From UHGV virus genome UHGV-0137099: 25,615 nt of DNA. One strand, 5' to 3'. This stretch comes from a virus. The position numbers and the translations under genes are program-made. Of this stretch, positions 1,499 to 18,485 are shown piece after piece. Below the pieces are notes generated by a model. It saw nothing but the letters and a program-made list of their open reading frames with translations. It did not search any database and had not been told where the DNA came from. Each line of letters begins with the position of its first letter. Position 1 is the first letter of the stretch.

Positions 1499-1654
1499 GG
1501 TCTTTCCTCAGCATGCCGGCTATCGCGTTGTCTGCCGTATCGCAAGCGCGTTGGATATCGGACTGGGTCAGAGTCCTCTTTCTAACGCTGGCTGATAGCC
1601 TGCCAATTTTGATATCGAAATCTGAAAGTAAAAGTGTGCCTGGTTGCCAACGTA

Positions 1655-1691
1655 GCATTGTGATCTCCGGTTCATAGGTAGATCACAATGC
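1655..1691. repeat. Perfect 12-bp inverted repeat (GCATTGTGATCT / AGATCACAATGC) with a 13-nt spacer
   Basis: Read directly from sequence; lies in the non-coding gap upstream of xis on the minus-strand operon. Confidence 0.7.
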
Positions 1692-1707
1692 TAACGACGG
1701 TTGCGAG

Positions 1708-1893
1708 TTATTTCTGATTAGGCTTAATCAGGTTTGGTTTATTACGGAACGCGCCATTTTCGCGGGTGATTTTGGCACTGCGCGGGAAATGCATAGCCAG
1801 TTCACAACGCGCGCAGGCTTCGATTATCCCGTTAGTACCGTCCGGAAAAACGACGTGAAGCGCGTCGCCTCGTTTCAGTGTGAGTTTCAGCAT
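1708..1893 (-). CDS. Hypothetical small protein (61 aa, from the internal ATG of the 73-aa track ORF)
   Basis: ATG at 1893 lies 2 nt after the stop of the upstream gene (TGAtATG coupling); same strand as the operon. No recognisable motif. Confidence 0.4.
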   Translation of the reverse strand: MLKLTLKRGDALHVVFPDGTNGIIEACARCELAMHFPRSAKITRENGAFRNKPNLIKPNQK

Positions 1894-1894
1894 A

Positions 1895-2461
1895 TCAGCG
1901 CACCTGCAGTGAACGTTCGCCAATCTCAAGGTGAGCGCCCGGCACTGGGTTTAACAGTTCTTCCGGTATCTCTCCGCCGTCAGCGCTAATCTGGGCCGCT
2001 GCTGCCTGTGCTGATTCAATCGCTTCCTTGATGGCTTTCTTGTCCGGAGTGACTAACGTCTGAACTGTCACTAATTCATCCGGCAGTAATTCATCGTTAT
2101 CGATCACGACGTTTATAGCCCCCTTGCGTGCGGTAAAAGTATTTTTGGCGGTTTTAACCGTATCCTGACCGGCGGCCAGAAGGCACTGGAGAACATACTT
2201 CTTCAGGTTAGCGATCTTGCCTTCGAATGATTTTTTTCGGGCGGCGAGGCGTTTGGCCTCTTCATCGCAGGTTTTCGCCAGACCTTCCAGATTGCGAACG
2301 TGGACGAATACGGCATCCAGTTTATCGCCGAGTTGTAACTCGAGACCTTCCATTGTGTCGGCGATCATTTCCGGAGACAGACCAGAACCATCTTCATTTT
2401 CCAGAAGCGCCTGGAGTTTTGACATATCGGCAGCGATAGCAATAGCAGTAGTGGAAGTCAT
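1895..2461 (-). CDS. Hypothetical coiled-coil protein of the recombination module (possibly Gp157-like)
   Basis: 188 aa, acidic, helix-rich; start ATG overlaps the stop of the upstream annealase gene by 1 nt. Family assignment is by position next to an annealase only. Confidence 0.5.
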   Translation of the reverse strand: MTSTTAIAIAADMSKLQALLENEDGSGLSPEMIADTMEGLELQLGDKLDAVFVHVRNLEGLAKTCDEEAKRLAARKKSFEGKIANLKKYVLQCLLAAGQDTVKTAKNTFTARKGAINVVIDNDELLPDELVTVQTLVTPDKKAIKEAIESAQAAAAQISADGGEIPEELLNPVPGAHLEIGERSLQVR

Positions 2462-4611
2462 TATGCTTTCTCCTCGGCTTTATTCAGTTCCTTAATACGG
2501 CCATCCTTAATGGTGATGAGTCGGCGGAGTCGGCCAGACAGATAGCGTTCATGCTGCGTATCGCCGTTGGCCTGGGCGGCTTTAATGTGTACATCGATCT
2601 CACGTGCAATAGGGGAAAATACGCCATTGATTTCGTTCACCGTCACGCCATGCGCCAGGGTATTCGCAACGCGGCTTAATTTGTCGTCAAACTCCTGGCG
2701 AAGCCGTGCTGCATCTTCGGCTGATTCGCTGGCATTCTTCAGGTCAAACTCGGCCTTATTCTTCTGGCGGTACTCCAGATTGTCGTAAAGCCCCATAAAG
2801 ATATCGCCGCTGAATCCGAGGCCGGATAACGCTTTTTTGGTCGCATCAGTCAGTGATTTCTTGGCTGCTTCGCCGTCGCAGGTGATCCCATATTTACTGC
2901 CGTAGATGTAGGGTGTACAGCCGTATGCTGTTTCCTCACCTCGTACGCCGTTCAGGATGTACCAGAGCCGGACAGTCACAACATGGTGCTGTTCGTTGAC
3001 GGTATTACCATTCCCATCAAGAACCAGCTCCCACGATGCGTTGTTGTCTTTTCCTTTTACCTGGCGAGAGATCGGCGCGCCAATATCGAAACGCTCTTCA
3101 ACAATATCCACGCCCCAGCCGATACCCTTAGGGCCAAACTCACGGGTGGCGAGCATGGTCATGTAGGTACCGTTGATCGAGGTGCCACCGCCGTTCTGTG
3201 TGAAAGCCTTAGTAAACCTTTCGTCGGTTTTAAATACGCGTTTCCAGAGGTCTAAATTGTCTTCCCCGATGATTGGTTTTCCGACAGCCTGCACAACATC
3301 CTCAGCGTTAGGCAGGCTTTCAGCGTGAGCGATTTGTTTTGCTAAACGCTCGGAATCATCAGCCAGTTTTTCAGCCTTAACGCTTAACTTCTCTTCCGGC
3401 TCTGCACCTTCACCAGAGGCATATACGCCATAACCCATATCATTGAGCGTCTCACGCGCCTGTTTGGCCTGGGTGTCGGTTACAACCGGCTGCGGCGCTT
3501 CCACTTTTTCGCCCACGTTTGAGGCGGTATTTTGCGTCGCCTCTGGTTGTTTAACGGATCCTGTCTCGGTTTCCTCAAAGCGGCCGTTGGCCGCCAGCCA
3601 TGAATCGATATGGCGGCGCAGGCTGTCAGGGAAATGGTAGGTATCTTTCGCCGGTACGTTTTGTACCACGCCGAAGATGCTGGCGCGGTCGTATTTGAGT
3701 ATCTGCGGCGTGGTGTGCAGCGATGCTGACCAGCGTTTAAAATCTTCCCGGTCATCGGAAATCATCTTCTTAGCGTCCAGAAGGTTTCCGGATAGTACCG
3801 GCGCATCAGGCGCCAGCGGGAGAAGGGCGGTAGCGATCTCCTGATCCAGCGTTGCATAAGTGTGTTTATACCCGCGCTTAGAAATTACCACTGGCGTTTT
3901 ATCATCGGTGCTGGTGCTGAGAGCGGTATTTTTATATACGCCAGGGGCCAGTTCGTCGCGTTTGCCCGGATTCTCAAGCCAGCTTTTAACGAACTGAGAG
4001 ATAGCCGCTTTACCCGGCGTCTGGTTTTCAAAGTGGGAGAAAATACCCTGAATAAGATTGTTCAGACCTTCCACATGCATGCTTTGAATCGGGAAGTTAT
4101 TTTGCAGGGCGCACAGCACGTTAAAGTTGAAGCGGTCTTCTTCTTCAAATTCCCCATCGTGGTTTTTCAGGTTATCCAGATAATCCACAACCTGAGAATA
4201 AAGATGGCCATCAATCGCCGCGGTGCTAAAAAGCAGGACGGCAGCAAAGCGTTCTTCAGCGGAAACGGTCATAAGGTCGATCACTTCATCGTCGGCAGGT
4301 AAACCAGCACTACTTCCGGAAGCGCTATCCTGCACAGTAGAAATCCATTTTTCACCGTCAAAAGTATGCTGCTGGGCGAATGACTCATCGAACTGGCCAA
4401 CGGTAGGCAGCGGCTGGCCTTCAATGTGTTCCCACAGTTTCGGTTTGAAATAGTTGTCACCATTGGCCGGGTATGATTCCCAGAGTTTGCCGGTCATAAT
4501 GCTTTCGGCCACTTTTTTGTTTGGCGCATCGATTGCGATCGTCAGCTGAACGGCGCCGCAGTCTTTAATCGCCGATTTCTTTGGCTCAAATAAGCCGTTG
4601 TAGATGGTCAT
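2461..4611 (-). CDS. Rad52-family single-strand annealing protein with a ~450-aa N-terminal extension of unknown function
   Basis: C-terminal region FGPKGIGWG ... AYGCTPYIYGSKYG ... AAKKSLTDATKKALSGLGFSG resembles the Rad52 annealing core (FGYNGW ... KARKEAVTDGLKRALRSFG). Start chosen at ATG 4611 (MTIYNGLF...), which is directly preceded by GAGGAAAGACCA; the track's longer start at 4644 lacks this. Confidence 0.75.
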   Translation of the reverse strand: MTIYNGLFEPKKSAIKDCGAVQLTIAIDAPNKKVAESIMTGKLWESYPANGDNYFKPKLWEHIEGQPLPTVGQFDESFAQQHTFDGEKWISTVQDSASGSSAGLPADDEVIDLMTVSAEERFAAVLLFSTAAIDGHLYSQVVDYLDNLKNHDGEFEEEDRFNFNVLCALQNNFPIQSMHVEGLNNLIQGIFSHFENQTPGKAAISQFVKSWLENPGKRDELAPGVYKNTALSTSTDDKTPVVISKRGYKHTYATLDQEIATALLPLAPDAPVLSGNLLDAKKMISDDREDFKRWSASLHTTPQILKYDRASIFGVVQNVPAKDTYHFPDSLRRHIDSWLAANGRFEETETGSVKQPEATQNTASNVGEKVEAPQPVVTDTQAKQARETLNDMGYGVYASGEGAEPEEKLSVKAEKLADDSERLAKQIAHAESLPNAEDVVQAVGKPIIGEDNLDLWKRVFKTDERFTKAFTQNGGGTSINGTYMTMLATREFGPKGIGWGVDIVEERFDIGAPISRQVKGKDNNASWELVLDGNGNTVNEQHHVVTVRLWYILNGVRGEETAYGCTPYIYGSKYGITCDGEAAKKSLTDATKKALSGLGFSGDIFMGLYDNLEYRQKNKAEFDLKNASESAEDAARLRQEFDDKLSRVANTLAHGVTVNEINGVFSPIAREIDVHIKAAQANGDTQHERYLSGRLRRLITIKDGRIKELNKAEEKA

Positions 4612-4655
4612 TGGTCTTTCCTCTTGGTTTCTGGCGCAGGTCACGCGCCGGTTAA

Positions 4656-4979
4656 TTAAAACGGTACGTCGCTTTCTTCAATCGGAGAGTGATCGATGCA
4701 CAGCAGCTGCTGAATCTGGTCTTCAATAACACCCAGCTCCTTCTTAGCTTCGGCAGAGATTTTCTCTTTCTTCGCGCGAAGGGCATTAACCTGCATACCA
4801 ATAATGTCGATTGGTTCTAAAGCCGGGATGGCAACCTCTACCGTTTTGGTAGTAACGAGGACATACAGATCAGGGTATTGCTGTGACATGTCACAGGTGA
4901 ATGAGTGATAAGACGTTGGTAGATATGGGTTCGTTGTGGCCATAACGTAAACAGTTACGGGGATGGTAAGCGCTTCCAT
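4656..4979 (-). CDS. Hypothetical protein (107 aa)
   Basis: ORF on the operon strand with a strong SD (AAGGAG, 6-nt spacing) before ATG 4979. An alternative layout is an upstream 47-aa ORF from 5035 coupled to an internal ATG at 4889 (see findings). Confidence 0.5.
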   Translation of the reverse strand: MEALTIPVTVYVMATTNPYLPTSYHSFTCDMSQQYPDLYVLVTTKTVEVAIPALEPIDIIGMQVNALRAKKEKISAEAKKELGVIEDQIQQLLCIDHSPIEESDVPF

Positions 4980-5035
4980 AGCGACTCCTTGTTGATGTAT
5001 ACTCAGAGCCGATCAGTGTTGACTCTGTCGGCATT

Positions 5036-5427
5036 GGTCTTTCCTCATCACAAGCTTGGTCGCTTGTGATAAGTCCGAATGGTTTGGTCACCGTTCGGGG
5101 TAACTGGCCCGCCTTGTGCGGGCCTTTTGCCATCTAAAGGTTGCCGGTCTTTCCCGGCTGTCAGGGCTGGTCACGCCCGTTGGTCATTGGTCTTTCCTCC
5201 CGGTCTTTCCCGGCGCCAGAGCTGGTCAGGCTCGCTGGTCTTTCCTCACAGGCTCCCTCTTTTCGAGGGCTTCAGTTTTCACTGAACGGTCGCATAAATC
5301 TTTACTGTGTTAAAAAAATGCCCGGGGCGCCCGGGCCAAGACTACACACAGCAATTCGTATTCGTTGCGGTCTTTCCCGCATGTCATCGTACTGTCGGCG
5401 ACCCGAAGAATTCGTGCCCGTCTTTCC
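5036..5427. repeat. Array of at least 7 copies of the core GGTCTTTCC (minus-strand sense GGAAAGACC), several extended to CGGTCTTTCCCGG...CTGTCAG/GCTGGTC units
   Basis: Copies at 5036, 5146, 5189, 5202, 5237, 5369 and a degenerate one at 5419; the same core precedes start codons at 1499 and 4613. Confidence 0.8.
5312..5336 (-). terminator. Rho-independent terminator for leftward transcription
   Basis: GC hairpin GCCCGG-GGCGC-CCGGGC; on the minus strand it is followed by ATTTTTTT. Confidence 0.6.
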
Positions 5428-5581
5428 GGACTGTCAGAACTGTTTCTGAACAACTGCCGCGTGGTTAGTGCGTCGTTGATGTGATGTAATTTAGGTAAAT
5501 CTAACAAATTGGTCAATGATTAAATTAGAAAAAACGAACAATATGAGCGTAAAAAAATACATCTATCTGATTAGAAAGGGA

Positions 5582-5968
5582 TTATTTTTGTTTGCGGGCT
5601 TGCAGTAACTCTTCAAATAAACGATTGAAACCGTCTACTTTTTCGCGAAGTTCCGTTAAATGCCGCTCTTTTTCAGATTCAGGGAGTGACGAAAAGAGTT
5701 TTAAAAGCTCTGTTTCTCGTTCATCTAACGGCGGCGGGGTGTCTACCGGGGTTCCCGGAGTGGCGGCTTCATCGCCGTAAAGTATCCAGGTAGGGCTGCA
5801 TTGAAGTGCGTTACTTAAAGCGAATAGGTTTTTCCCGCCAGGCTCACTATCACCGGTCTCCCACTGGGAGATAGTGACGTGCGCGACGTTAACCAGCTTC
5901 GCTAAAGCGCGCTGAGTAAGTTTGAGATCTTTTCTACGCGCTCTGATGCGCTCACCTGGCATTGTCAT
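5582..5968 (-). CDS. Phage repressor, short XRE-family HTH protein without a LexA-like peptidase domain
   Basis: 128 aa; N-terminal HTH (LKLTQRALAKLVNVAHVTISQWETG); divergent from a Cro-like gene; no SD upstream of the ATG, so possibly leaderless like lambda cI from pRM. Confidence 0.8.
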   Translation of the reverse strand: MTMPGERIRARRKDLKLTQRALAKLVNVAHVTISQWETGDSEPGGKNLFALSNALQCSPTWILYGDEAATPGTPVDTPPPLDERETELLKLFSSLPESEKERHLTELREKVDGFNRLFEELLQARKQK

Positions 5969-5970
5969 AG

Positions 5971-6025
5971 TTAGATAATTCTAAATTTCCTTGACTTCGT
6001 TATCTCGAACACCTAATTTGTTAGG
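5971..6025. promoter_or_regulatory. Immunity-region operators and a rightward sigma70-like promoter (pR-like)
   Basis: Palindromes TTAGATAATTCTAA (5971-5984) and CCTAATTTGTTAGG (6012-6025); -35 TTGACT (5991-5996), 17-bp spacer, -10 TAATTT (6014-6019); SD CAGGAGGG before the cro-like ATG at 6049. Confidence 0.55.
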
Positions 6026-6048
6026 AAAATCTAACAGGAGGGTGTTTC

Positions 6049-6243
6049 ATGTTAACAACTGATGCGATCAAATATTTTGGTAGTAAGAGAAAACTGGCTG
6101 AGGCCGCTGGCGTTAAGGCTCCTACTGTCTATGCGTGGGGGCGTTTGGTTCCTGAAGGTAAAGCGGCTCGTTTGTCTCTGATGACTGATGGCGAACTTGT
6201 TTATGACCCAAAGGCTTACCAACTGCCAGCCAAATCAGCTTAA
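6049..6243 (+). CDS. cro: Cro-like repressor (P22 Cro family)
   Basis: 64 aa; IKYFGSKRKLAEAAGVKAPTVYAWGRLVPEGKAARLSLMTDGELVY parallels P22 Cro IDHFGTQRAVAKALGISDAAVSQWKEVIPEKDAYRLEIVTAGALKY (recalled from memory); divergent from the repressor. Confidence 0.8.
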   Translation: MLTTDAIKYFGSKRKLAEAAGVKAPTVYAWGRLVPEGKAARLSLMTDGELVYDPKAYQLPAKSA

Positions 6244-6305
6244 CAATTGGCGGCATCGAAATCTGATTACGCTTAATCAATTTTCAGCGACAGGAGACGC
6301 TCGAA

Positions 6306-6752
6306 GTGGAATACCTCGAAGAACTTAAACGAGAGATCTTTAACTGGGCAGCGGAAAGCGGGCAGGAGCTGGTTGCTATCGAGATAAGCCGCATGTGGTT
6401 TCGTCTTGGTGGTAATACCGGTTCGCTGAAGCTGCACCAGATCGAAGATGCAGATGGAAACGCCGACTGGCGGGCAATCAACAACAACCGCCAACAAATT
6501 TTTCGTTGGTTGAGAGGCGAGACCAAAGCCGCGAGAGCCAAAACTCTGGCGCTGGTCAAAGCGATGGAAGCGGCGCTGCCGGCAGAGCGTTACGCTCGCT
6601 TGGGTATGTCCACCCAGTATTTAATTTGTGTGGCCATTCGTGAGTTTGCCGCGGCGATTATCGCGTTGTTACTCGACGCCAGAGACGGGCCGCAGCAAGT
6701 CGCCAGAGCATTGCAAGCTATGCGAGAAACACAGCGCCTGACCAGCGTTTAA
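6306..6752 (+). CDS. Early regulatory protein, possibly CII-like / YdaT-family
   Basis: 148 aa with GTG start and AGGAG SD; sits where cII lies in lambdoid phages (right after cro). Family call is tentative. Confidence 0.45.
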   Translation: MEYLEELKREIFNWAAESGQELVAIEISRMWFRLGGNTGSLKLHQIEDADGNADWRAINNNRQQIFRWLRGETKAARAKTLALVKAMEAALPAERYARLGMSTQYLICVAIREFAAAIIALLLDARDGPQQVARALQAMRETQRLTSV

Positions 6753-6772
6753 CCTGTACCGAGGAAAGACCA

Positions 6773-6994
6773 ATGAGAACACAAGACCGCATCACCTGGC
6801 GGAACGGGTTTCGCCGGAACGGGGTACAAGTCCCGATAGAAGATATCGAATCGATTTTCGAGGAACGTCGCGCTACTGCGCTGACAATCTGGGAACGCTA
6901 TGAACTGCGTAAGGCAGACCTACAGGAAGCGGGACTCACCCAGAAAGAATACGAAATCGCCTGCCGCCAGCTGGCTGACTCGCTGGGGATTTGA
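6773..6994 (+). CDS. Hypothetical protein (73 aa)
   Basis: Start preceded by the conserved GAGGAAAGACCAATG module and an upstream GC hairpin. Confidence 0.5.
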   Translation: MRTQDRITWRNGFRRNGVQVPIEDIESIFEERRATALTIWERYELRKADLQEAGLTQKEYEIACRQLADSLGI

Positions 6995-6996
6995 CT

Positions 6997-7980
6997 ATGA
7001 GTATGACGCTTATGGCCAAAGCAATGGCAATCAAGACCGGAAACCCGATTCGAAAACTGGTGCTGATCAAACTGGCTGATAACGCCAATGATTACGGCGA
7101 ATGCTGGCCGTCTTACAAACATATTGCGGATCACTGCGAGTGCAGCAAAAGCGCGGTGCGTGACCATATCGATGCGTTAATTTCTATGGGCCTGCTGGTG
7201 AAAGAAAATCGCCCGGGCGTAAAAAACGGGAAGGGTAACGCGTCGAATTTGTACTGTATGAAACTTGATAACCCTATGCCGCCAAAAAGCATAGCCCCTA
7301 TGCCGTCAGAAAGCACAGGTATGCCGCCAAAAAGCATAGCCCCTATGCCGTGTGGCGGCACCAGAACCAGTCACTCTTTTGAACCAGTCATAGAACCTAA
7401 AGATCCCCCTAACCCCCAGACGGGGGAAGGCGATGAAAAAATTAATTCTGATGCTAAAAAAGCGCTGGATTTTTACAACGAGCAAACCGGTACCCGCTGC
7501 CGTGACCTGAAACCTTTTGTGATGATGCTGACGCCGACCACCACCCGGGAAGGTTACACCCTGGACGAATTGCAGTTAGTTATCCGCTGGGTGCTGGCCA
7601 CATGGCGCCGCCGTGGCGATAGCCTGCCGAAGCCAGCGAACATCTGCCGGGTAAACCGCTTTGATGGTTATCTTGCTGACGCTGAAGCATGGGCGGTGAC
7701 AGAAACCGATATTGATCCGGAAGCCGTTATGAACGGCTACAACGAAATTTTTGCTGACGTTCTGCCTGCTGCTGAACTGGACACCGACCGCCGCCGGATG
7801 ATCACCCGACTTGCCGCCCACATGAAAAACAAAACCACGGGCGCATTTCTGGGTTATTTCGAAAAATTCCGCGCTGACGCCTCCGATTTTTACTTTGGTG
7901 AAAATGGCGGATGGCGCGCCAGCTTTGACTATCTGATGAAACCAGAGACATTGCGTAAGACCAGGGAGGGCGCTTTATGA
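6997..7980 (+). CDS. Replication initiation protein (lambda O-like role), N-terminal winged-helix DNA-binding domain
   Basis: N-terminus IRKLVLIKLADNANDYGECWPSYKHIADHCECSKSAVRDHIDALISMGLLV looks like an HTH replication-initiator domain; contains internal iteron-like DNA repeats; directly followed by a DnaB-like helicase with ATGA overlap. Start could be TTG 6991, ATG 6997 or ATG 7003. Confidence 0.7.
   Translation: MSMTLMAKAMAIKTGNPIRKLVLIKLADNANDYGECWPSYKHIADHCECSKSAVRDHIDALISMGLLVKENRPGVKNGKGNASNLYCMKLDNPMPPKSIAPMPSESTGMPPKSIAPMPCGGTRTSHSFEPVIEPKDPPNPQTGEGDEKINSDAKKALDFYNEQTGTRCRDLKPFVMMLTPTTTREGYTLDELQLVIRWVLATWRRRGDSLPKPANICRVNRFDGYLADAEAWAVTETDIDPEAVMNGYNEIFADVLPAAELDTDRRRMITRLAAHMKNKTTGAFLGYFEKFRADASDFYFGENGGWRASFDYLMKPETLRKTREGAL
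7272..7350 (+). repeat. Iteron-like repeats inside the initiator gene (candidate origin of replication)
   Basis: 30-bp unit ATGCCGCCAAAAAGCATAGCCCCTATGCCG occurs twice (7276-7305, 7321-7350), built from alternating CTATGC / GCATAG half-sites; followed by an AT-rich stretch around 7430-7480. Confidence 0.55.
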
Positions 7981-9383
7981 TGCAGATGATGTATTCCACT
8001 CAGGAACTGGAATGTCTGGTTCTTGGCTGCCTGATGAACGGTGGCGCCACGCCAGACGCCTTTGATGTGATTGCCAGCACTCCGAGCGAAGCTTTCAGCG
8101 TCGCATACTACAGGCAGATTTACGGTGTGATCAAAGCGCAGGCCTTGAGCGGCGGCTTAATTGACATGATGTACATTAGCGAAGCCATTGGCGGACAGGG
8201 GACGCTGGCCAATCTCGCCGATATTTGCAAATTCCCGACATCGATCGTCAATCTCAAAGGCTACGCCAAAAAAATGGTTAAGGCCTGGCGAAGCAGAACC
8301 ATCGCGCAATTACTCCAGGATGGTGCGGATGGTATTCGTGATGCGATAAACCAGGAACAGCGCGATCAGGTTGTCGAAACTGCCGTTGCGCAGCTGCTGG
8401 ACATGACCGGCGACACTGGCGACGTGCAGCCGGTACATATCAGCGAATTATTGCCGGTGTACATGGAAACCATTCAGAAGCGCATGGACGGTGAAGAGGG
8501 TACCCGCAACCTGAAAACCGGGATCGACGAGCTGGATGAAGTCACTGGAGGTTTTAACCCACAGGATTTGATTGTTGTCGGTGCACGCCCGGGTATGGGA
8601 AAAACCGAGCTTGCGCTGAAGATTGTCGATGGTGTTACCGCTGCCGGCGGTGGAGTGTTGATATTCAGCATGGAAATGGCCGCTGCGCAAATCTTAGAAC
8701 GCTCTCTGGCGGGTTCTGGCAACATGTCAGTGTCACGCCTGCGTAATCCCCTCGATATGCAGGACGAGGACTGGGCGCGCTTTACAGCGGCCATGGAGAC
8801 CATGAACGGGCGCGATATCTGGATCGTTGATGCTACCGATCTGACGATTGAGCAAATCCGCGCCGTTGCCGAAACGCATAAGCGCCGGTATCCGCATCTG
8901 GCGATGATCGTTGTCGATTACCTTGGCCTGATTAAAAAACCGAAGGCAGAGCGTAACGACCTCGCGATCGCCCACATATCCCGAAACCTTAAAACTATGG
9001 CTATGCGCCTGCATACGCCGACTTTCGCGCTTAGCCAGCTTTCCCGCGCTGTGGATTCCCGCCCAGCGGCCCAGCGCCGCCCGGTCATGTCAGATCTGCG
9101 CGATTCAGGTTCTATTGAGCAGGACGCCGACAGCATCATGTTTCTGTATCGCGATGAGGTTTACAACCCGGAAAGCCCGGCGGCTGGCGTCGCTGAAATT
9201 ATCCTGGGTAAAAGCCGCTTCAGCGCCGCAGGCGCAATTATTTATCAGGAATTTAAAAACGGACACTTTCTGTCTATGGATCAGCATGTTGGCAAAGAGA
9301 AAACACGTATCCAACTGGAGGCCGCGAAACCCCGGAAACAACCCCGTAAATACTCTGAGAAATTCAATACCGATGCATTTTAA
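7977..9383 (+). CDS. Replicative DNA helicase, DnaB family
   Basis: 468 aa; Walker A GARPGMGKT, Walker B-like IVVDYLGL, helicase C-terminal motifs (SQLSRAVDSR, SDLRDSGSIEQDAD). Confidence 0.93.
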   Translation: MMQMMYSTQELECLVLGCLMNGGATPDAFDVIASTPSEAFSVAYYRQIYGVIKAQALSGGLIDMMYISEAIGGQGTLANLADICKFPTSIVNLKGYAKKMVKAWRSRTIAQLLQDGADGIRDAINQEQRDQVVETAVAQLLDMTGDTGDVQPVHISELLPVYMETIQKRMDGEEGTRNLKTGIDELDEVTGGFNPQDLIVVGARPGMGKTELALKIVDGVTAAGGGVLIFSMEMAAAQILERSLAGSGNMSVSRLRNPLDMQDEDWARFTAAMETMNGRDIWIVDATDLTIEQIRAVAETHKRRYPHLAMIVVDYLGLIKKPKAERNDLAIAHISRNLKTMAMRLHTPTFALSQLSRAVDSRPAAQRRPVMSDLRDSGSIEQDADSIMFLYRDEVYNPESPAAGVAEIILGKSRFSAAGAIIYQEFKNGHFLSMDQHVGKEKTRIQLEAAKPRKQPRKYSEKFNTDAF

Positions 9384-9421
9384 CCGCGCCTGACCAGCGC
9401 GATTTAACAGAGGAAAGACCA

Positions 9422-10090: not shown

Positions 10091-10093
10091 GGC

Positions 10094-10327
10094 ATGGCCG
10101 GGCAATCAGATTACTTGCCGCCCGGCTTACCGCTCAATCGCGCCAAATGGCCGCAGGAGTGCCAGATCAAAGAGCACTACGACATGCGCGCCTCGGCACT
10201 CATACGCCAGCTGTTCGAGAAGAAAGTTACTCGACAGGCCATCGTAGAACAGATTGCAGCGACGCCGGAAAGCTACCGGGAGTTTTTCAAAGAGAGATTG
10301 AATTTTTGGCGGGAGAAGCGGACATGA
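10094..10327 (+). CDS. Hypothetical protein (77 aa)
   Basis: Tightly packed ORF 4 nt after the previous stop. Confidence 0.45.
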   Translation: MAGQSDYLPPGLPLNRAKWPQECQIKEHYDMRASALIRQLFEKKVTRQAIVEQIAATPESYREFFKERLNFWREKRT

Positions 10328-10494
10328 AATTTTCAACACCTGATTTTATGCATTGCAGCCGCAGGACGCTGATGCTGTTCGTACTCAGTGCAAATGTTGT
10401 TGGCTGGATAGTCATTATCGCTCTTATTTGGGCTGGATGTGAGGTTGTGCAGTGGGCGCTGGAATATCTCCGCAGTAGTGGGGTGCTGGCGTGA
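10324..10494 (+). CDS. Small predicted membrane protein (56 aa)
   Basis: ATG overlaps the upstream stop (ATGA); hydrophobic core LMLFVLSANVVGWIVIIALIWAG; its stop overlaps the next start (GTGA). The track's longer start at 10147 would overlap the upstream gene. Confidence 0.4.
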   Translation: MKFSTPDFMHCSRRTLMLFVLSANVVGWIVIIALIWAGCEVVQWALEYLRSSGVLA

Positions 10495-11081: not shown

Positions 11082-11264
11082 ATGGCAGATTTTAGCGCAA
11101 CCAAAAGAACCGCGTCGCTCGAAGATTGGGGCGACGCGCTGGAATTAATCGTCGAATTAAATGGTAAATCATTCGATATCACAGAAATGGAGATTGAAGC
11201 CGCTTACGAGGCATATAAGCGAGTTGATGATTTTTTTTATGACGAATGGGGTGATGATCAATGA
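11082..11264 (+). CDS. Small very acidic protein (60 aa; 17 Asp/Glu against 5 Lys/Arg)
   Basis: ORF exactly filling the gap between the two methyltransferase genes; composition counted from the translation. Confidence 0.5.
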   Translation: MADFSATKRTASLEDWGDALELIVELNGKSFDITEMEIEAAYEAYKRVDDFFYDEWGDDQ

Positions 11265-12094
11265 TTGAAAAAAAAATCAGGCATCCTGTAATCAGATATC
11301 ACGGCGGGAAATTCCGACTGGCACACTGGATTATCGAGCAGATGCCGGACCACGTCTGCTATGTCGAACCGTTCGGCGGCGCTGCTGGCGTATTGCTTCA
11401 AAAATCGCGTAGCTATTCAGAGGTGTACAACGATCTCGACGGCGAGGTGGTGAACCTGTTTCGTGTGTTGCGCGACCCTGAATTAAACCAGCGCCTGCAG
11501 GATGCCTGTTGCCTGACCCCGTATTCACGCGATGAGTTCTGTCACGCTCAGCAACCAGCCACTAACCCTATCGAACGCGCCCGCCGTATGGTGGTTCGTG
11601 CCTGTATGGGGTTCGGCTCTGCCGCAGGTATCGGCGGTCAATCCGGCTTCCGCAGCGACAGCAAACGCAAATACGCTACGGCGGCGCATCTATGGGAGCG
11701 TTACCCGGCTAATCTCGCTGTTGTCTGTCAGCGCCTTCAAGGAGTCATCATCGAGAACAAAGACGCTCTGGCGGTAATGCGCGCCCACGACGCAGAAACG
11801 ACGCTGCATTACATCGATCCGCCATATATGCCGGAAACACGAGTGCAGAAAAATCGTTATTACAACCATGAAATGACCGTTGAAGGGCATGAGCAATTGC
11901 TCGCTGTGTCCAGAACGATGAAAGGCATGGTGATGATTAGCGGTTACGACACTGATGTCTACAACGACATGCTATCCGGCTGGGCGAAGACCGAGAAAGC
12001 ATCGCGCATCAGTGCCGGTCGCGGTATGAAAGTCCGTACTGAATGCCTCTGGCTTAACCCTGCAGCACAACAGAAACAGGAGCGTGCAGCATGA
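11261..12094 (+). CDS. Dam-like (D12 class) N6-adenine DNA methyltransferase
   Basis: 277 aa; SAM-binding motif EPFGGAAGV and catalytic DPPY (HYIDPPYM). Confidence 0.88.
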   Translation: MIEKKIRHPVIRYHGGKFRLAHWIIEQMPDHVCYVEPFGGAAGVLLQKSRSYSEVYNDLDGEVVNLFRVLRDPELNQRLQDACCLTPYSRDEFCHAQQPATNPIERARRMVVRACMGFGSAAGIGGQSGFRSDSKRKYATAAHLWERYPANLAVVCQRLQGVIIENKDALAVMRAHDAETTLHYIDPPYMPETRVQKNRYYNHEMTVEGHEQLLAVSRTMKGMVMISGYDTDVYNDMLSGWAKTEKASRISAGRGMKVRTECLWLNPAAQQKQERAA

Positions 12095-12127
12095 CAAAAT
12101 GCTGTAAGTGCTGCGAGAAGGTGATTT

Positions 12128-12466
12128 ATGGCTAAGTCATCCGCAGAACGTAAAGCCGCGCAGAGGGCGCGGCAATCTGCCGCCGGCAACCGGAAAATTG
12201 AGCTGGTTCTCGATGCGCAGGAAATGGACATGCTGGCGCGTAACTGCGCCGCCCGGCGCCCGGGCCGTGAACCGTACGAACTGGCCGAGTACATAGCTAT
12301 GCTGATCCGTCAGGATGATGTGCGGCTTAGTGGCCACATCAAATCGATCAGCAAACGCCTGTGTGGAAAGTGCGGTGAGTCGCTGCCGATCACCTCCTGC
12401 CCGTGTGCTGGTGATTCGCAATGCTGGGTAACGCGCGGGTGGCACGAAACTAAGCTGACAGTGTGA
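12128..12466 (+). CDS. Hypothetical protein with C-terminal Cys cluster (CGKCGESLPITSCPCAGDSQC)
   Basis: 112-aa ORF; possible small zinc-binding protein; no family recognised. Confidence 0.45.
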   Translation: MAKSSAERKAAQRARQSAAGNRKIELVLDAQEMDMLARNCAARRPGREPYELAEYIAMLIRQDDVRLSGHIKSISKRLCGKCGESLPITSCPCAGDSQCWVTRGWHETKLTV

Positions 12467-12541
12467 GGAGTAATCATTTTTTATGAAGCCTTATATGTTC
12501 TTGATAAAAGATGTGATTTATCAATTTATGCCCTTAAAAAT

Positions 12542-12570
12542 TTGCGATCACTACTCGTTGGTAGTATATA
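12542..12570 (+). promoter_or_regulatory. Sigma70-like promoter inside an AT-rich moron
   Basis: -35 TTGCGA (12542-12547), 17-bp spacer, -10 TATATA (12565-12570); followed by palindrome ACTGTGAATTTATACAGT and SD GGAGAGG. Confidence 0.45.
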
Positions 12571-12609
12571 TACTGTGAATTTATACAGTATTATTGTTGA
12601 GGAGAGGTA

Positions 12610-12801
12610 GTGGTTGATAAGAAAGACGCAGGAGACCTTCTCCCCGACAATGGTGATGTACTGATTACTTGTGAAAATGGGAAGATTAAGAAGACCAGAA
12701 TTGTCCATCCCGATGAGCACGTAGCGACACTTAACGCGTTGTTTGAATTAGCTAAATTGACTGGTTATACCATTATCAAACCAGACGGCAATATGCTATA
12801 A
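12610..12801 (+). CDS. Hypothetical small protein (63 aa) in an AT-rich moron
   Basis: GTG start after SD GGAGAGG; local GC clearly lower than its neighbours; own promoter-like sequence upstream. Confidence 0.4.
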   Translation: MVDKKDAGDLLPDNGDVLITCENGKIKKTRIVHPDEHVATLNALFELAKLTGYTIIKPDGNML

Positions 12802-12869
12802 TTACACCGTTGGCCTGAACACCCAACACCATGTAATTCTGAACAATTGCTGCGCTAAAGGGGATCCCA

Positions 12870-13466
12870 ATGGCGCAGTATTCTTTTGTAAAAGCACCCG
12901 GCGGTGTATTAATTCCGGCAACGCCTGACGCCCGCGATTTTTTAGAAAAAAAAGTCCGCCTGGGCGGTATTTTGTATGCAGATTTTAAGCAGGCAAGAAA
13001 CCCGGCATTTCACCGTAAATTTTTTGCCCTCCTGAATCTTGGATTTGATTACTGGCAACCTTCCGGCGGTGCAATATTGCCAGCTGATAAAAAACTGGTT
13101 CGTGGTTATGTGCAACTGGTAGCCCACTATGCCGGGCATGCAGACACGTTGCAGGAACTGGCGGATCAGTACCTCCGCGATGAGGCAGAAAAACGCGCAG
13201 GGAATATCAGCGCTGTTAAATCGTTTGAAGCATTCCGTTCCTGGGTAACTATCGAAGCTGGTTTTTATACCGAATACCAGATGCCTGATGGCACCACCCG
13301 CAAAGAACCCAAATCCATATCGTTCGCAAAAATGGACGATGTAGAATTCTCCCAGCTGTATAAATCCGTATTAGACGTCCTCTGGAATTTTATTCTATTC
13401 CGCACCTTCCCCAATCAGCAGGCAGCGGAAAACGCAGCCTCTCAGCTTTTCAGTTATGCGGCCTGA
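12870..13466 (+). CDS. Hypothetical phage protein (198 aa)
   Basis: Long clean ORF with SD AAAGGGGA upstream; no catalytic motif recognised. Confidence 0.6.
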   Translation: MAQYSFVKAPGGVLIPATPDARDFLEKKVRLGGILYADFKQARNPAFHRKFFALLNLGFDYWQPSGGAILPADKKLVRGYVQLVAHYAGHADTLQELADQYLRDEAEKRAGNISAVKSFEAFRSWVTIEAGFYTEYQMPDGTTRKEPKSISFAKMDDVEFSQLYKSVLDVLWNFILFRTFPNQQAAENAASQLFSYAA

Positions 13467-13476
13467 GGCGGACACT

Positions 13477-15401: not shown

Positions 15402-15404
15402 TTC

Positions 15405-17030
15405 ATGGATCAACTCGCCAGCCGGTTAATCAGGCGCGCTGACACGCTGAAAGCAAATCGCCAGGTGCATGAAAGCGTCTGGCGAGAGTGCTACGACTAC
15501 ACCTATCCGCTGCGCGGGGCCGGGTTTTCGTCTGAGGTGCTGGACGCACAGAGCGCGAAACATAAGGTTGCAAAGCTGCTGGACGGCACAGCCACCGACA
15601 GCGCCCGCATGCTGGCGTCCGCGCTTATGTCAGGGATGACCCCGGCGAATGCTCAATGGCTGAACCTCGACAGCGAATTACTGCCTGATGACGCTAAGGC
15701 GTGGTTGTCCACCTGTGCAACGCTGGTATGGGAAAATATCCACGCCGCTAACTTTGACGCGGAAGGGTACGAGGCCAATCTCGATGTGGTCTGCGCTGGC
15801 TGGTTCGCGCTGTACGTCGATGAGGACAAGGAAGAGGGCGGATTTACCTTTCAGCAGTGGCCGCTGGCGCAATGCTTTGTGACCTCCACCCGCCGGGACG
15901 GCATCGTTGACACGATTTATCGCTGCTATCAGCTCACCGCTGAACAGGCAGTGAAAGAATTTGGCGCGGACAGGGTAAGCGAAAAAATCCGCGATGCTGC
16001 AAAAAACAAACCCGACGATAAATTTGATTTCCTGCACTGTATTTTCCCGCGCGATACCTACGCCGAAAATGCGAAGCTGGCGCGCAACATGCGTTTTGCA
16101 TCGTTCAACGTGGAAGTGAGCGGCAAGCGTATTGTGCGTGAATCCGGCTATCACGAATTCCCTGTATGTGTCCCGCGCTGGATGAAAATCCCCGGCGGCT
16201 CCTACGGCATCGGCCCGGTATACGACGCGCTGCCGGACTGCAAAGAGCTGAACGAAACCAAACGCATGGAGAAGGCCGCGCAGGATCTGGCTATCTCCGG
16301 GATGTGGATTGCTGAAGATGACGGCGTGCTTAATCCGCGCACGGTCAAAGTCGGCCCGCGCCGCATCATCGTGGCAAACAGCACCGAAAGCATGAAACCG
16401 TTGCTCACCGGCGCAGATTTCAACGTTGCGTTTACCGCTGAACAGCGTCTGCAGGCTTCCATTCGCAAAATCATGATGGCCGATCAGCTACAGCCGCAGG
16501 ATGGCCCGGCAATGACCGCTACCGAAGTGCATGTGCGTGTCGCGCTGATCCGCCAGTTGCTCGGCCCGGTCTATGGCCGTTTTCAGGCTGAATACCTGCA
16601 ACCGCTGGTGGAGCGCTGCTTTGGTATTGCGTTCCGCGCTGGCGTTTTCCCTCCCGCCCCCGAGAGCCTCCAGAGTGCCAATTTTAACGTGCGTTATATC
16701 TCCCCGCTGGCCCGCGCGCAGAAGCTGGAAGATGTGACCGCCATCGAGCGCTACGGCCAGAACATCATGCAACTGGCGCAGGCGTACCCCGATGTACTGG
16801 ACAACATGGACAGCGACGAGGCGAGCAAGGTTGTCGGCGAGGCTCTTGGCGTTCCCGCAAAAGTCATGCGCTCTGCTGATGCGGTCGAGCAACTTCGACA
16901 GCAGCGCCAGCAGATGCAACAGCAGCAGGCGCAACAGCAGATGCTGATGCAGGCCGGGACGGAAGCCGCAGGCGCAGCAGGGCAGACAGCAGGTGCAATT
17001 ATGGGACAACGACTGGCGGGCAACCAATGA
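15405..17030 (+). CDS. Head-to-tail connector (portal) protein, podovirus/T7-like type
   Basis: 541 aa, immediately upstream of scaffold-like and capsid genes; Gln-rich C-terminus (QLRQQRQQMQQQQAQQQMLMQ) as in T7-type connectors. Assigned by size, order and composition, not by alignment. Confidence 0.65.
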   Translation: MDQLASRLIRRADTLKANRQVHESVWRECYDYTYPLRGAGFSSEVLDAQSAKHKVAKLLDGTATDSARMLASALMSGMTPANAQWLNLDSELLPDDAKAWLSTCATLVWENIHAANFDAEGYEANLDVVCAGWFALYVDEDKEEGGFTFQQWPLAQCFVTSTRRDGIVDTIYRCYQLTAEQAVKEFGADRVSEKIRDAAKNKPDDKFDFLHCIFPRDTYAENAKLARNMRFASFNVEVSGKRIVRESGYHEFPVCVPRWMKIPGGSYGIGPVYDALPDCKELNETKRMEKAAQDLAISGMWIAEDDGVLNPRTVKVGPRRIIVANSTESMKPLLTGADFNVAFTAEQRLQASIRKIMMADQLQPQDGPAMTATEVHVRVALIRQLLGPVYGRFQAEYLQPLVERCFGIAFRAGVFPPAPESLQSANFNVRYISPLARAQKLEDVTAIERYGQNIMQLAQAYPDVLDNMDSDEASKVVGEALGVPAKVMRSADAVEQLRQQRQQMQQQQAQQQMLMQAGTEAAGAAGQTAGAIMGQRLAGNQ

Positions 17031-17260
17031 TCAAAAAAGACGTAACCCCTGAAGACTACCGGCGCATTTTCGAGGAAATGCCCGGCGGGCCGCAGGTGCT
17101 GGACGACATTACCCGCCGCTTCGGGCGTGAGGCATATGTCAAAGGCGGTACTGAGGGCGACCGCGAAACCTGTTACCGGGCCGGACAGCGTTCCGTTCTC
17201 GATTTTATTCTCAGTCAAATCAACAAGGCCGATGGAGTAGAAGACTATGTGGAAGATTAA
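17027..17260 (+). CDS. Hypothetical protein (77 aa)
   Basis: ATGA overlap with the portal stop. Confidence 0.5.
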   Translation: MIKKDVTPEDYRRIFEEMPGGPQVLDDITRRFGREAYVKGGTEGDRETCYRAGQRSVLDFILSQINKADGVEDYVED

Positions 17261-18095
17261 ACACTTATTGATGAACGCCGAGCAGGGCGCAGAAGCGCCA
17301 GCAGGCAGCACAGGGGGCAATGATGGTGGCAATGGCGATGGTACTCAAAATCCGGGCGGCGGTAATCCTGCTGGTACTTCGCTACTCAGCACCGGCGCGG
17401 TCGAACAAGGCGCGGATGACTGGCTACCTGAAAAATACCGCGTTATGGGCGATGACGGAAAACTCAACGTTGAAGGCTCAGCCCGCAAACTGGCGGATGC
17501 TTACTCGCACCTTGAAAAGCGCATGGGCAGCGGGGACACGCCGCCGAAAACTGCTGATGAGTATGCGCCAAAGGTAGAGGTCGAGGGCTTCAAGTGGGAC
17601 GAATTCAAAGCCGACCCACGCATGCAATCCTTCATGAAATCGGCGCATGCCAAAGGCATCACCAACGATCAGATGGGTTTCATCCTGGGCGAATATGCAC
17701 AGCTGGCCCCCGAACTGGTTAACGGTGCTGCGACGCTGGATTCGGAAGCCGCCGCCACGCAGCTGCGCGAGACGTGGAAAACTGACGCCGAGTTTAATAA
17801 AAACATCGGTCTGGCTTTCCGGGCGTTTAACTCTCTGGCGGATGACAGCGACAAAGGGCGTATGGATGAAATCGGCAATAACCCGCTGGTGATCCGCATG
17901 CTGGCGAAAATCGGCGCTGAAATGCAGGAAGATGCACCGGCGGGCGGTGATGTGAATCTCGAAGAGCAGCAATCAATCCGCGACCTGATGAAATCCCCGG
18001 CGTATATGGATCCTAAACACGCTGACCATGAGAACGTTTCCGCCCGGGTTCGCGCCTATTACCAGAAGCGTTACGGCGATCAAACTGTAGCGTGA
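17247..18095 (+). CDS. Putative capsid assembly (scaffolding) protein
   Basis: 282 aa, strongly acidic, Gly/Ala-rich N-terminus, between portal and major capsid; assignment positional. Confidence 0.5.
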   Translation: MWKIKHLLMNAEQGAEAPAGSTGGNDGGNGDGTQNPGGGNPAGTSLLSTGAVEQGADDWLPEKYRVMGDDGKLNVEGSARKLADAYSHLEKRMGSGDTPPKTADEYAPKVEVEGFKWDEFKADPRMQSFMKSAHAKGITNDQMGFILGEYAQLAPELVNGAATLDSEAAATQLRETWKTDAEFNKNIGLAFRAFNSLADDSDKGRMDEIGNNPLVIRMLAKIGAEMQEDAPAGGDVNLEEQQSIRDLMKSPAYMDPKHADHENVSARVRAYYQKRYGDQTVA

Positions 18096-18128
18096 CATGT
18101 CACGACAACTTAACCAGAGGAAAGACCA

Positions 18129-18485
18129 ATGAGCGACAAAGATATCGAACAGCAAATTCAGGCTAAAGGCTTAACCGCGCCGCGCGTCACTCCACAGCAC
18201 ATTGATAGCGTTATTGCTGAATGTCATTACTTTACGGCTGGCGAGGCTGCGCGCGCTGGGTGGCCTGACCCTAATGCCGCCGATCCGATTCACCCAAATC
18301 TAGACCTACTTACTATCTGCGTTCTGGTGCTACGTAACGGCTTCACCGTCACCGGCGAAAGCGCCTGCGCCAGCCCGGAAAACTTCGACCCTGAAATCGG
18401 GCGCAAGATTGCACGCGATAACGCGGTAAATAAAATCTGGATGCTGGAGGGGTATTTGCTCAAACAGAAATTAAGCGAACAGTAA
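18129..18485 (+). CDS. Hypothetical virion-module protein (118 aa)
   Basis: Preceded by palindrome CGTGACATGTCACG and AGGAAAGACCAATG; between scaffold and capsid genes. Confidence 0.5.
   Translation: MSDKDIEQQIQAKGLTAPRVTPQHIDSVIAECHYFTAGEAARAGWPDPNAADPIHPNLDLLTICVLVLRNGFTVTGESACASPENFDPEIGRKIARDNAVNKIWMLEGYLLKQKLSEQ

Follow-up and report, generated by a model that had tools for sequence, protein, structure and literature searches.

A conserved 11-mer before gene starts in a family of enterobacterial prophages: a candidate start-associated RNA module that coincides with mosaic junctions

The 25,615-nucleotide (nt) stretch of the virus genome UHGV-0137099 analyzed here (the window) represents the left two-thirds of a temperate prophage with lambdoid organization, and it carries eight full copies of an 11-mer, GAGGAAAGACC, five of which immediately precede the starts of otherwise unrelated genes. 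The conserved unit is this 11-mer and not a Shine-Dalgarno (SD) sequence plus ATG. The element is real, occurs throughout a family of related phages, is sense-oriented and start-proximal, and coincides with mosaic breakpoints. Judged from sequence comparison, it is under base-by-base purifying selection and is accompanied by a genuine fixed-loop hairpin formed in a single strand. The reading preferred here, to which a probability of roughly 0.45 is assigned, is that of a lineage-specific start-associated RNA module acting in mRNA, which would combine an open ribosome-loading site, extra information for a specific reader and a joint for module exchange.

Five of the eight copies in the window stand 0–1 nt before real genes. 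On the minus strand, the copy at 1499–1509 directly abuts the start codon of xis (1498–1496) and at the same time encodes ..RKD.. in an overlapping upstream open reading frame (ORF; 1658–1434), while the copy at 4613–4623 is separated by one A from the ATG (4611–4609) of an exonuclease-like gene. On the plus strand, the copies at 6761–6771, 9410–9420 and 18117–18127 are each followed by an A and then by the ATG of p73 (6773), p222 (9422) and an accessory gene of the Phage_gp49_66 family (18129), respectively. The other three copies lie on the minus strand in the untranslated leader of the PL promoter: that at 5036–5046 is followed by an ATG (5034–5032) opening a 47-codon ORF, that at 5189–5199 by an ATG (5187–5185) opening a 7-codon mini-ORF, and that at 5237–5247 by no start codon (GAGGAAAGACC-AGCG). 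The peptides of these two ORFs are not conserved, and the ORFs are probably not genes. All eight copies are in the sense orientation, and seven belong to early operons. The initial annotation had described a 14–15-mer at the starts of the five genes; all five copies were found where it had placed them, and the three full copies in the PL leader, together with three partial copies containing only the 9-mer GGAAAGACC, had been overlooked. The motif is enriched: of the 13-mer GGAAAGACCAATG (the form at xis is one base shorter) there are six exact matches, and seven when ≤ 2 mismatches are allowed, whereas 0.63 would be expected, and none of 100 shuffled sequences reached this count, which rules out a chance origin of the motif. 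The strand asymmetry within the window is pronounced, with 11 sense and no antisense occurrences of GGAAAGACC and 23 against 2 for GAAAGA.

Conservation was assessed in 80 relatives chosen via homology of the exonuclease protein (58–99% amino-acid identity), so that the sample is independent of the motif; some analyses were anchored on exact motif matches, with the protein-anchored sample as the control, and many of the loci are close relatives. At the start of the orthologous exonuclease gene, GAGGAAAGACC was exact in 77 of the 80 relatives, the remaining three having GACT, and ATG or GTG followed 0–2 nt downstream, while the spacer between hairpin and motif varied freely. Over 48 distinct orthologous windows, column identity was 0.998 for the 11-mer, 0.55 for the 45 nt upstream and 0.76 for the first 40 coding nt. 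The initial annotation was thus right to regard conservation of the motif as well beyond what an SD context requires, and related phages keep the motif. The GAGG core lies 7–10 nt before the start codon, and positions 5–11, which are outside this core, are invariant across the orthologous windows. The architecture is common to every relative: three to six occurrences of GGAAAGACC in the PL leader, one at the exonuclease gene, one at xis and two on the opposite strand, at the orthologues of p73 and p222, with six to nine copies per early region. An automatic rule placed 458 of 465 copies in the sense orientation, and the seven apparent exceptions are coordinate offsets in the two loci L156 and L170.

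Among 681 distinct instances, 75% had, at an offset of 0–7 nt (mode 1), a start codon that opens an ORF of 30 codons or more, and these starts were ATG in 96% of cases; for the 514 gene-associated instances, which precede about 30–45 unrelated N-termini, the offset was 0–3 nt in 96%. A further 12% of all instances had no start codon and 13% only short non-conserved ORFs, and these are the leader copies. Since the start lies 0–7 nt downstream, may be GTG, and is lacking after many leader copies of relatives, the proposal that the motif ends exactly on the start codon does not hold as a rule. The orthologous copies of the leader 11-mer at 5036–5046 have no start codon in relatives, and PGAP annotated no gene after the leader copies of a related Escherichia coli prophage.

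The possibility that the motif is merely the generic SD context of the host, which the initial annotation had named as a refuting case, was rejected. In an E. coli chromosome harboring the related prophage, a comparison that covers about 116 kb of one host genome, the exact 11-mer occurred six times in 25.5 kb of prophage and not once in 115.7 kb of host DNA, and with one mismatch allowed the numbers were seven and zero; moreover, the non-SD positions of the motif are invariant, and SDs vary among the remaining window genes. The genes that carry the module are also set apart by their position. They are separated from the upstream gene by 20–44 nt, while most other junctions overlap or are a few nt apart; xis is an exception, with a gap of about 209 nt and the overlapping upstream ORF. 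They head blocks whose later genes overlap their predecessors, such as the translationally coupled block of the exonuclease, Gp157 and phrog_2482 genes and that of p73, an O-like gene and DnaB. The predicted unpaired probability at positions −15 to +4 was 0.65 for the 5 module genes against 0.46 for 26 other genes (Mann-Whitney p = 0.0009).

A sister lineage, which comprises Pectobacterium phage ZF40 and phages of Xenorhabdus and Providencia, uses the variant GAGGCAAGACC. ZF40 shows the same early-region synteny, with GAGGCAAGACC at six gene starts and no occurrence of GGAAAGACC, and a scan for non-A variants revealed a large C-type family with 2–8 copies per locus. The 137 A-type loci contain 738 A copies and no C copy, and the 52 C-type loci contain 185 C copies and a single A copy, which derives from two high-GC loci of unrelated taxa that had passed the two-copy threshold by chance; A and C variants are never mixed within one family genome. 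Rare T variants were found in C-type genomes, as well as a small G-type lineage with its own palindromic hairpin. In a separate observation, a third lineage (L286, 1228–1260 and 1843–1875) uses GAGGGAAGACC, each copy lying 10 nt after a palindromic hairpin, GUACGUCA-N-UGACGUAC, that contains UGAC. The hosts of multi-copy loci are all Enterobacterales, and matches outside this order are single chance hits. A-type hosts are Escherichia, Citrobacter, Enterobacter, Shimwellia and Serratia, and C-type hosts are Xenorhabdus, Providencia and Pectobacterium. In a comparison bearing on a host- or phage-encoded reader, host taxonomy correlated only partially with motif type. The gene-less leader copies are conserved in both the A and C lineages and, as PGAP annotated no gene after those of the E. 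coli prophage, the 11-mer is conserved in its own right.

The four upstream hairpins cited in the initial annotation are all present. GGCGC-GUGACCU-GCGCC (4633–4649, minus strand) lies 9 nt upstream of the exonuclease 11-mer; AGCGC-CUGACCA-GCGUU (6733–6749, plus strand) overlaps the last codons of the ydaT-like gene; CGCGC-CUGACCA-GCGCG (9385–9401, plus strand) is placed 2 nt after the DnaB stop codon and recurs identically at the same place after DnaB in ZF40; and the palindrome CGTGACATGTCACG (18091–18104, plus strand) precedes the late-region 11-mer by 12 nt. No hairpin adjoins the xis copy, and the nearest TGACC hairpin, GGAC-UCUGACCCA-GUCC (1560–1576, minus strand), lies about 50 nt upstream of its 11-mer, inside the overlapping ORF. 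For a statistical test, TGACC was selected by position alone (≤ 45 nt upstream of the 11-mer), which gave 111 distinct windows. A stem of at least 4 base pairs (bp) around a 7-nt loop was found in 68% of them, against 2% of 1,159 control TGACC occurrences in the same loci. In an ungapped alignment of five stem pairs, 75.3% of the cells were paired against 53.8 ± 1.6% after shuffling, with a covariation score of 0.48 against 0.20 (neither value was reached in any of 500 shuffles) and 110 double-sided changes against 41; slid registers gave pairing of only 24–53%. The stems are mostly 4–6 bp (up to 12 bp), and at least ten unrelated ones are in use. In a loop-blind census, RACC was present in 54% of the best upstream hairpins, with CUGACCA (97) and GACCAA (37) dominating; CUAACCA is a natural variant, and the loop is asymmetric and always in the transcript sense, and the preferred distance from stem to motif is 8–11 nt. 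The covarying stems and the fixed loop indicate a single-strand structure, a hairpin formed in RNA.

Two side observations concern these sequences. Family-wide, 36% of the genes after the motif have ACC as their second codon, which creates GACCA-AU-GACCA and thereby repeats the hairpin-loop core GACCA; in the window, this is the case at 4609–4616 and 5185–5192 on the minus strand and at 9417–9428 on the plus strand. The repeat may be a repeated recognition unit, or it may merely reflect a few dominant gene families. In addition, the perfect palindrome GTGACATGTCAC occurs twice in the window, at 18092–18103 and at 4883–4894, within phrog_2479, where it covers the codons C-D-M-S and is also kept in ZF40; it is found once in 76 of 80 early-region loci, its pairing with the 11-mer recurs in C-type phages, and it may be a candidate protein-binding operator.

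The PL promoter (TTGACC-17-TAAATT, 5516–5488, minus strand) overlaps an operator, a further copy of which lies between cI and cro; the operators of the window are a palindrome, TGTTAG-N6-CTAACA, distinct from the 11-mer. Its transcript starts at about 5478 with an untranslated leader of roughly 440 nt, and a strong intrinsic terminator (5320–5336) is located between PL and the early-left genes. The part of the leader 3' of this terminator (5025–5312, minus strand, as are all leader features) is predicted to form about 10 local hairpins (minimum free energy −106.5 kcal/mol; z = −5.9) with the loops GAAA, GAAAA, GAAAGA, NUGACCA and GACCAA, the stems of which covary in relatives. In the centroid fold, the three full 11-mers sit between hairpins, two of them fully unpaired and the third with a 2-bp GG.CC contact. 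Two hairpins with GACCAA hexaloops occupy 5044–5098, namely CUUAUCACAAGC-GACCAA-GCUUGUGAUGAG (5044–5073) and CCGAACGGU-GACCAA-ACCAUUCGG (about 5075–5098); in relatives their loop is invariant and their stems are wholly replaced, for example UCACAAGC/GCUUGUGA versus CCGUAGGG/CCCUACGG. The array also includes GGGC-GUGACCA-GCCC (5164–5178) and GAGC-CUGACCA-GCUC (5219–5233). Partial motif copies, as GGAAAGACC, are embedded in three GAAAGA-loop hairpins, GCCGG-GAAAGA-CCGGC (5143–5158), which is preceded by CUGACAG, CCGG-GAAAGA-CCGG (5200–5213) and one at 5366–5381, and a fourth hairpin with this loop (5416–5431) lacks the 9-mer. The array may function as a sponge, as a loading platform or in antitermination.

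As regards other elements of the leader, the composite of CUGACAG and stem-GAAAGA-stem (5416–5437 and 5143–5164) is kept in relatives and in ZF40, with one copy upstream of the leader terminator; its stems covary (CCGG/CCGG, CCG/CGG, CUGG/CAGG), and its layout is boxA-boxB-like. The hairpin CCCUC-GAAAA-GAGGG (5255–5269) has the pentaloop of the lambda nutR boxB, which in relatives is replaced by GAAGA (the lambda nutL loop), GAGGA or GUAGA, and it is preceded by UUCAG-UGAAAA-CUGAA, with a covarying stem. The start of the leader (5310–5411) contains an RprA-like RNA, which scored 43.3 bits in Rfam, below the gathering score of 70 (E = 0.02); the RprA matches in 12 relatives were likewise below the gathering score. 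Its 3' half is nearly identical to RprA (ACGAAUUGCUGUGUGUAGUCUUGGCCC, terminator and U7), and the 17-mer UUGCUGUGUGUAGUCUU was present in 76 of 80 relatives together with covarying terminator stems, one variant of which nearly copies the E. coli RprA terminator. Judged by this resemblance, the phage segment, driven by PL, mimics the 3' domain of RprA; no report of such a mimic was found in the literature searched, and no known Rfam family was detected at the modules themselves.

The relation of the module to mosaic structure was analyzed by breakpoint mapping, in which 588 distinct instances were compared. Pairs that shared only the upstream flank (n = 708) lost homology 0–5 nt after the 11-mer in 67% of cases, and pairs that shared only the downstream flank (n = 1,602) lost it 0–5 nt before the 11-mer in 41% and at the 5' edge of the hairpin in a further 22%; these percentages are descriptive, since the pairs are not phylogenetically independent. 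Individual loci gave the same picture. In the slot at 18129, three unrelated genes follow the same palindrome and 11-mer, the exonuclease module is preceded by three different upstream genes, and many relatives, among them the E. coli prophage, have an extra 94-amino-acid gene with a module on either side. As far as sequence alignments can tell, the 11-mer marks the places where gene modules are swapped, and because it is the sole sequence common to otherwise unrelated genes, it would be the joint for this exchange. Neither the coincidence with breakpoints nor the covarying stems and fixed loop of the hairpin, with their likeness to the boxB of phage 21, figured in the initial annotation.

According to the proposed start-associated RNA module, GAGG(A/C)AAGACC would supply the SD core GAGG together with an unstructured A/C-rich spacer and so allow open, context-independent ribosome loading. 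The module would stand before the gene that opens each block translated on its own, and also at accessory-gene slots, and the later genes of each block would depend on translational coupling. The seven positions that do not belong to the SD core do not vary, and they would therefore be read by a factor more specific than the 16S anti-SD. The optional upstream hairpin would display (C)U(G/A)ACC(A) or GACCAA as its fixed loop, with a stem that covaries freely, the gene-less stacked elements of the PL leader could serve as a loading, decoy or regulatory platform, and recombination at the shared 11-mer would drive cassette exchange.

Several points weigh against this proposal. Folding and accessibility are predictions, and the comparison of accessibility in particular depends on 5 genes. 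About half of the copies have no hairpin, and the 11-mer of C-type phages often stands directly after the upstream stop codon. The stems contain 30 G.U pairs and 24 A.C pairs, counts that do not separate the RNA from the complementary strand. Position 5 is A, C, G or T across lineages, and the uniformity within genomes could result from descent and recombination rather than from a co-evolving reader. No RNA complementary to the motif was found: after motif copies were masked, the fetched early regions contained no complementary 7–8-mers that are conserved, and genome-wide pairing scans of the window, BUCT708 (the nearest named phage) and ZF40 gave only U-rich terminator tails. A six-frame scan detected no N-like arginine-rich ORF, and no recognizable RNA-binding protein was identified. 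The AlphaFold model of p73 (pLDDT 71) had no fold match with E < 1, and that of phrog_2479 (pLDDT 35) was unfolded.

A number of candidate readers were considered and set aside. A phage antisense or small RNA was rejected on account of the pairing scans just described. The RprA-like leader RNA has a seed-like segment that pairs with the motif over 5–6 bp and shows no co-variation with the A and C types. CsrA is unlikely, since the C-type motif lacks GGA; the Hfq ARN motif would be represented by just two ARN triplets; and on inspection the pairing to the 3' tail of 16S rRNA did not extend past GAGG(A). The C-type motif is also complementary over 8 nt to an internal segment of 16S rRNA, which lies in a paired helix, and this match was put aside. 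As for proteins, p73, p222 and phrog_2479 have no Pfam, NCBIfam or PDB relatives.

A more far-reaching form of the same proposal can be put forward only tentatively and is, taken as a whole, rather unlikely. It supposes a private post-transcriptional code, in which a lineage-matched protein or host RNA would read GAGGNAAGACC, a boxB-like recognition of the (U)GACC(A) loop would couple readthrough to ribosome loading, and the genes so marked would form an early-gene regulon. The leader array, with its RprA-like small RNA, about 10 hairpins and three gene-less 11-mers, would then be a sponge, a timer or a loading platform, and the 11-mer would provide a universal socket for new genes.

The main rival, a serious one even though we consider it unlikely, regards the 11-mer as an ordinary good ribosome-binding site (RBS) with no dedicated reader, the identity of which is kept by recombination at a short shared linker, helped by the exonuclease/annealing system of the phage, so that new genes are joined through the version of the resident lineage. 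This explanation accounts well for breakpoints concentrated at both edges of the 11-mer, for the cassette gene between two modules, and for the occurrence both of alternative genes after the same upstream sequence and 11-mer and of the same gene after different upstream sequences. It is also consistent with variants that are uniform per lineage and unmixed while position 5 is free across lineages, with the RecE-like exonuclease and Gp157 encoded by the phage, and with the literature concept of short conserved boundary sequences, which are, though, rarely found (PMC3029335). At the same time, eleven base pairs are very short for homologous exchange, a DNA linker needs neither strict sense orientation nor SD geometry, and the gene-less leader copies are kept at fixed positions in both lineages. 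At orthologous sites the spacer beside the 11-mer has diverged freely, in sharp contrast to the 11-mer itself, a pattern that points to purifying selection on every base rather than to conversion tracts; the rival explains neither this contrast nor the gene-less copies.

A nut-like role is a minority explanation and quite improbable. It states that a phage or host RNA-binding antiterminator loads on the nascent boxB-like hairpin, possibly together with the 11-mer or CUGACAG, and allows RNA polymerase to read through the leader and intercistronic terminators. The hexaloop of the phage 21 boxB is CUAACC (PDB 1NYB); the CU(G/A)ACC(A) loops described here are close to it, and CUAACCA is a natural variant. 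The combination of covarying stems with fixed loops is that of boxB, a strong terminator does stand between PL and the early-left genes, the leader contains the CUGACAG and GAAAGA composites and the hairpin with the lambda nutR loop, and in one relative the module hairpin is followed by a U7 tract and so forms a terminator. Against this stand the lack of an N-like arginine-rich protein in any frame, which is the reason why the explanation stays a minority one, and the nature of the first gene of the PL operon (the N position), the product of which is acidic and gave no domain hit. There is no conserved boxA (CGCUCUUUA-like), an isolated resemblance, GCGAUUUAACA at 9397–9407, not being conserved, and the hairpin flanks and spacers vary between orthologous sites. 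Moreover, at least seven sites per genome were counted, including the operon-distal one at 9385 and that in the head module at 18091, instead of one per early operon, and the hairpin is optional, the invariant part being the SD-containing 11-mer next to start codons.

It is very unlikely that the 11-mer is a DNA site, namely an asymmetric 11-bp target of a conserved phage DNA-binding protein (a stoperator-like roadblock or activator) or an element of a phage-specific promoter. Its asymmetry, its single orientation relative to transcription, its intergenic position and its clustering just downstream of PL are indeed those of the stoperators of cluster A mycobacteriophages, the variants are uniform within lineages, and the true palindrome GTGACATGTCAC lies beside some copies. 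However, the repressor differs among phages that share the motif (128 amino acids in the window, 151 in the E. coli prophage and 247 in ZF40), the covarying stems indicate a single-strand structure, and the fixed SD geometry and the preference for ATG remain without explanation at the DNA level. No sigma-70-like promoter was found at any module, and no RNA-polymerase domain was present in the 30 window ORFs scanned against Pfam, which are part of the full set. The suggestion in the initial annotation of a phage-specific promoter overlapping the RBS was thus not supported, the more so as the 11-mer, to act as SD, needs a transcript that starts upstream of it. Least probable of all is an RNA-processing site, at which a host or phage RNase would cut near the hairpin or 11-mer to yield block-specific mRNAs with protected upstream 3' ends and new 5' ends exposing the SD, as T7 intercistronic RNase III sites do: the order of stop codon, hairpin, A/U- or A/C-rich single strand and SD and the location at borders of translation blocks would suit it, but stems of 4–6 bp are too short for RNase III, the spacer is not conserved and hence offers no fixed cleavage context, and the 11 invariant bases and the conserved loop are left unexplained.

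The modules are set among the following genes. The prophage is integrated beside tRNA-Leu(UAA) (35–118, plus strand; 25563–25649 in the locus L320); the same leuZ-cysT-glyW/pgsA site is also occupied by the related E. coli prophage, the leader region of which is 88% identical to that of the window. Leftward genes are those for the integrase (253–1269), the DUF4224 excisionase Xis (1253–1498), phrog_2482 and Gp157 (1895–2461), a 716-amino-acid exonuclease-like protein (2461–4611), phrog_2479 (4656–4979) and a helix-turn-helix repressor of 128 amino acids (5582–5968). The 716-amino-acid protein had been called a Rad52 fusion in the initial annotation; no Rad52 domain was detected in it, and it matches phrog_2489 ('exonuclease') over its full length, with a weak segment resembling RecE (exonuclease VIII) at residues 246–359. 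Rightward genes are cro (6049–6243), the YdaT-like gene (6306–6752), p73 (phrog_2465; 6773–6994), the O-like gene and DnaB (to 9383), p222 (phrog_4183; 9422–10090) and, downstream of it, two methylases, a DUF1367 gene and an HNH endonuclease, which are followed by a head module of the podovirus type that includes portal, Bbp19, capsid and nozzle genes. The Phage_gp49_66 gene at 18129 occupies a variable slot of this head module.

Some further observations were made on these genes and on related genomes. The product of p112 (12128–12466, plus strand; phrog_536, 'transcriptional regulator') has a basic N-terminal arm, AKSSAERKAAQRARQ, a middle segment that by eye resembles a ribbon-helix-helix, and a Cys-rich tail beyond it, and its homologues in C-type phages have the 11-mer at the gene start. 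A 44-codon arginine-rich ORF that begins MPFARRKRKSLPKLRR lies out of frame inside phrog_2479 (4652–4786, minus strand) and most likely arises only because the main frame is rich in Lys and Glu codons. The nearest named phage, BUCT708 (L121, OM816834), is 85% identical to the window over 1495–13468; it is labelled as infecting Stenotrophomonas maltophilia, has 50% G+C and bears the Enterobacterales-specific motif, and its host label looks doubtful. In ZF40, the annotated 'gp08' (L200, 4919–5407) overlies the structured leader with its RprA-like segment, terminator and GACCAA hairpins and appears to be a spurious ORF, beneath which an unannotated homologue of phrog_2479 (MKAPEITITLYIHL..TCDMSQ..) is found at about 4921–5211 on the minus strand. 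For the p73 orthologue of the E. coli prophage, the start chosen by PGAP is an internal ATG and not the one associated with the motif.

In practical terms, the 11-mer can be used to correct gene starts, and it brings annotation errors to light, among them ZF40 gp08 and the PGAP call that truncates p73, and flags non-coding leaders. It may also offer a compact, context-insulated RBS for engineering. The junctions described above are among the clearest cases of mosaic breakpoints at a short shared sequence and bear on the debate between linker-mediated and illegitimate recombination. No description of the 11-mer was found in the literature searched, and the ZF40 genome paper does not describe the motif.

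Among known systems, T4 RegA sites, the MS2 and PP7 coat-protein hairpins and the Mu Com site are RNA elements at or near the RBS of several genes that are each read by one protein. Translational operators of the hairpin type have a sequence-specific loop, and RegA sites are loosely conserved and AU-rich, unlike the 11-mer, which is invariant over 11 nt. The stoperators, as noted, share with it the asymmetric, intergenic and transcription-oriented placement; in contrast to them, the same 11-mer coexists with different repressors, and the operators of the window are a different palindrome. The hairpin shares with boxB of phage 21 and P22 (GACAA) a short, G+C-rich stem, about 5 bp long, that can covary freely around a conserved loop, and both are found in early operons, not only downstream of PL but also within the PR operon; relative to the phage 21 loop, CU(G/A)ACC(A) is one base off, and the natural variant contains CUAACC exactly. 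The differences are that boxB/nut has two sites per genome and not many, and that here an N-like protein and a conserved boxA were not found, the hairpin is optional and the invariant part is an SD-containing 11-mer. The 'boundary sequences' of lambdoid phages, which were proposed to mediate modular exchange and are usually undetectable at mosaic junctions (cited in PMC3029335), resemble the 11-mer as a short sequence at the junctions of unrelated modules with homology breaking at its edges, whereas here one 11-mer is used genome- and family-wide and is also a translation signal in fixed orientation.

The closest counterpart is provided by the start-associated sequences (SAS) as well as the extended start-associated sequences (ESAS) of cluster K mycobacteriophages, described in 2011 (PMC3203893) and surveyed in 188 genomes in 2025 (PMC12699233). 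The likeness pointed out in the initial annotation extends to most aspects of behavior and stops at the sequence, the hosts and the ESAS arms. Both are short asymmetric repeats that combine an SD core with conserved bases unable to pair with 16S rRNA. Of both, each genome has many copies, which share one orientation and lie a few nt ahead of starts, with a strong preference for ATG; the exception in the 11-mer family is the 25% of instances, the leader copies, that have no start codon or a short ORF. Both are found mainly at non-structural genes that are separated from the upstream neighbor. Neither is present in the host genome, and in both about half of the copies follow an inverted repeat and the variants are lineage-specific. 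The SAS consensus GGGATAGGAGCCC (≤ 2 mismatches), from phages of Mycobacterium, is however unrelated to GAGGNAAGACC of the phages of Enterobacterales. The ESAS arms are sequence-conserved 17-mers, the departures of which do not support RNA pairing and which were proposed to be DNA sites, whereas the stems described here covary around a conserved loop; gene-less copies stacked in a structured PL leader and mosaic breakpoints at the motif edges likewise distinguish the 11-mer from SAS/ESAS. Given the unrelated sequence and hosts and the opposite behavior of the stems, the 11-mer is an analogue of SAS/ESAS and not a member of this group. While SAS have been known in one mycobacteriophage cluster since 2011, the 11-mer is an independent, sequence-unrelated counterpart in phages that infect E. 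coli, Citrobacter, Enterobacter, Serratia, Pectobacterium, Xenorhabdus and Providencia, and because genetic, ribosome-profiling and RNA-interactome tools exist for these hosts, the question raised by SAS becomes directly testable.

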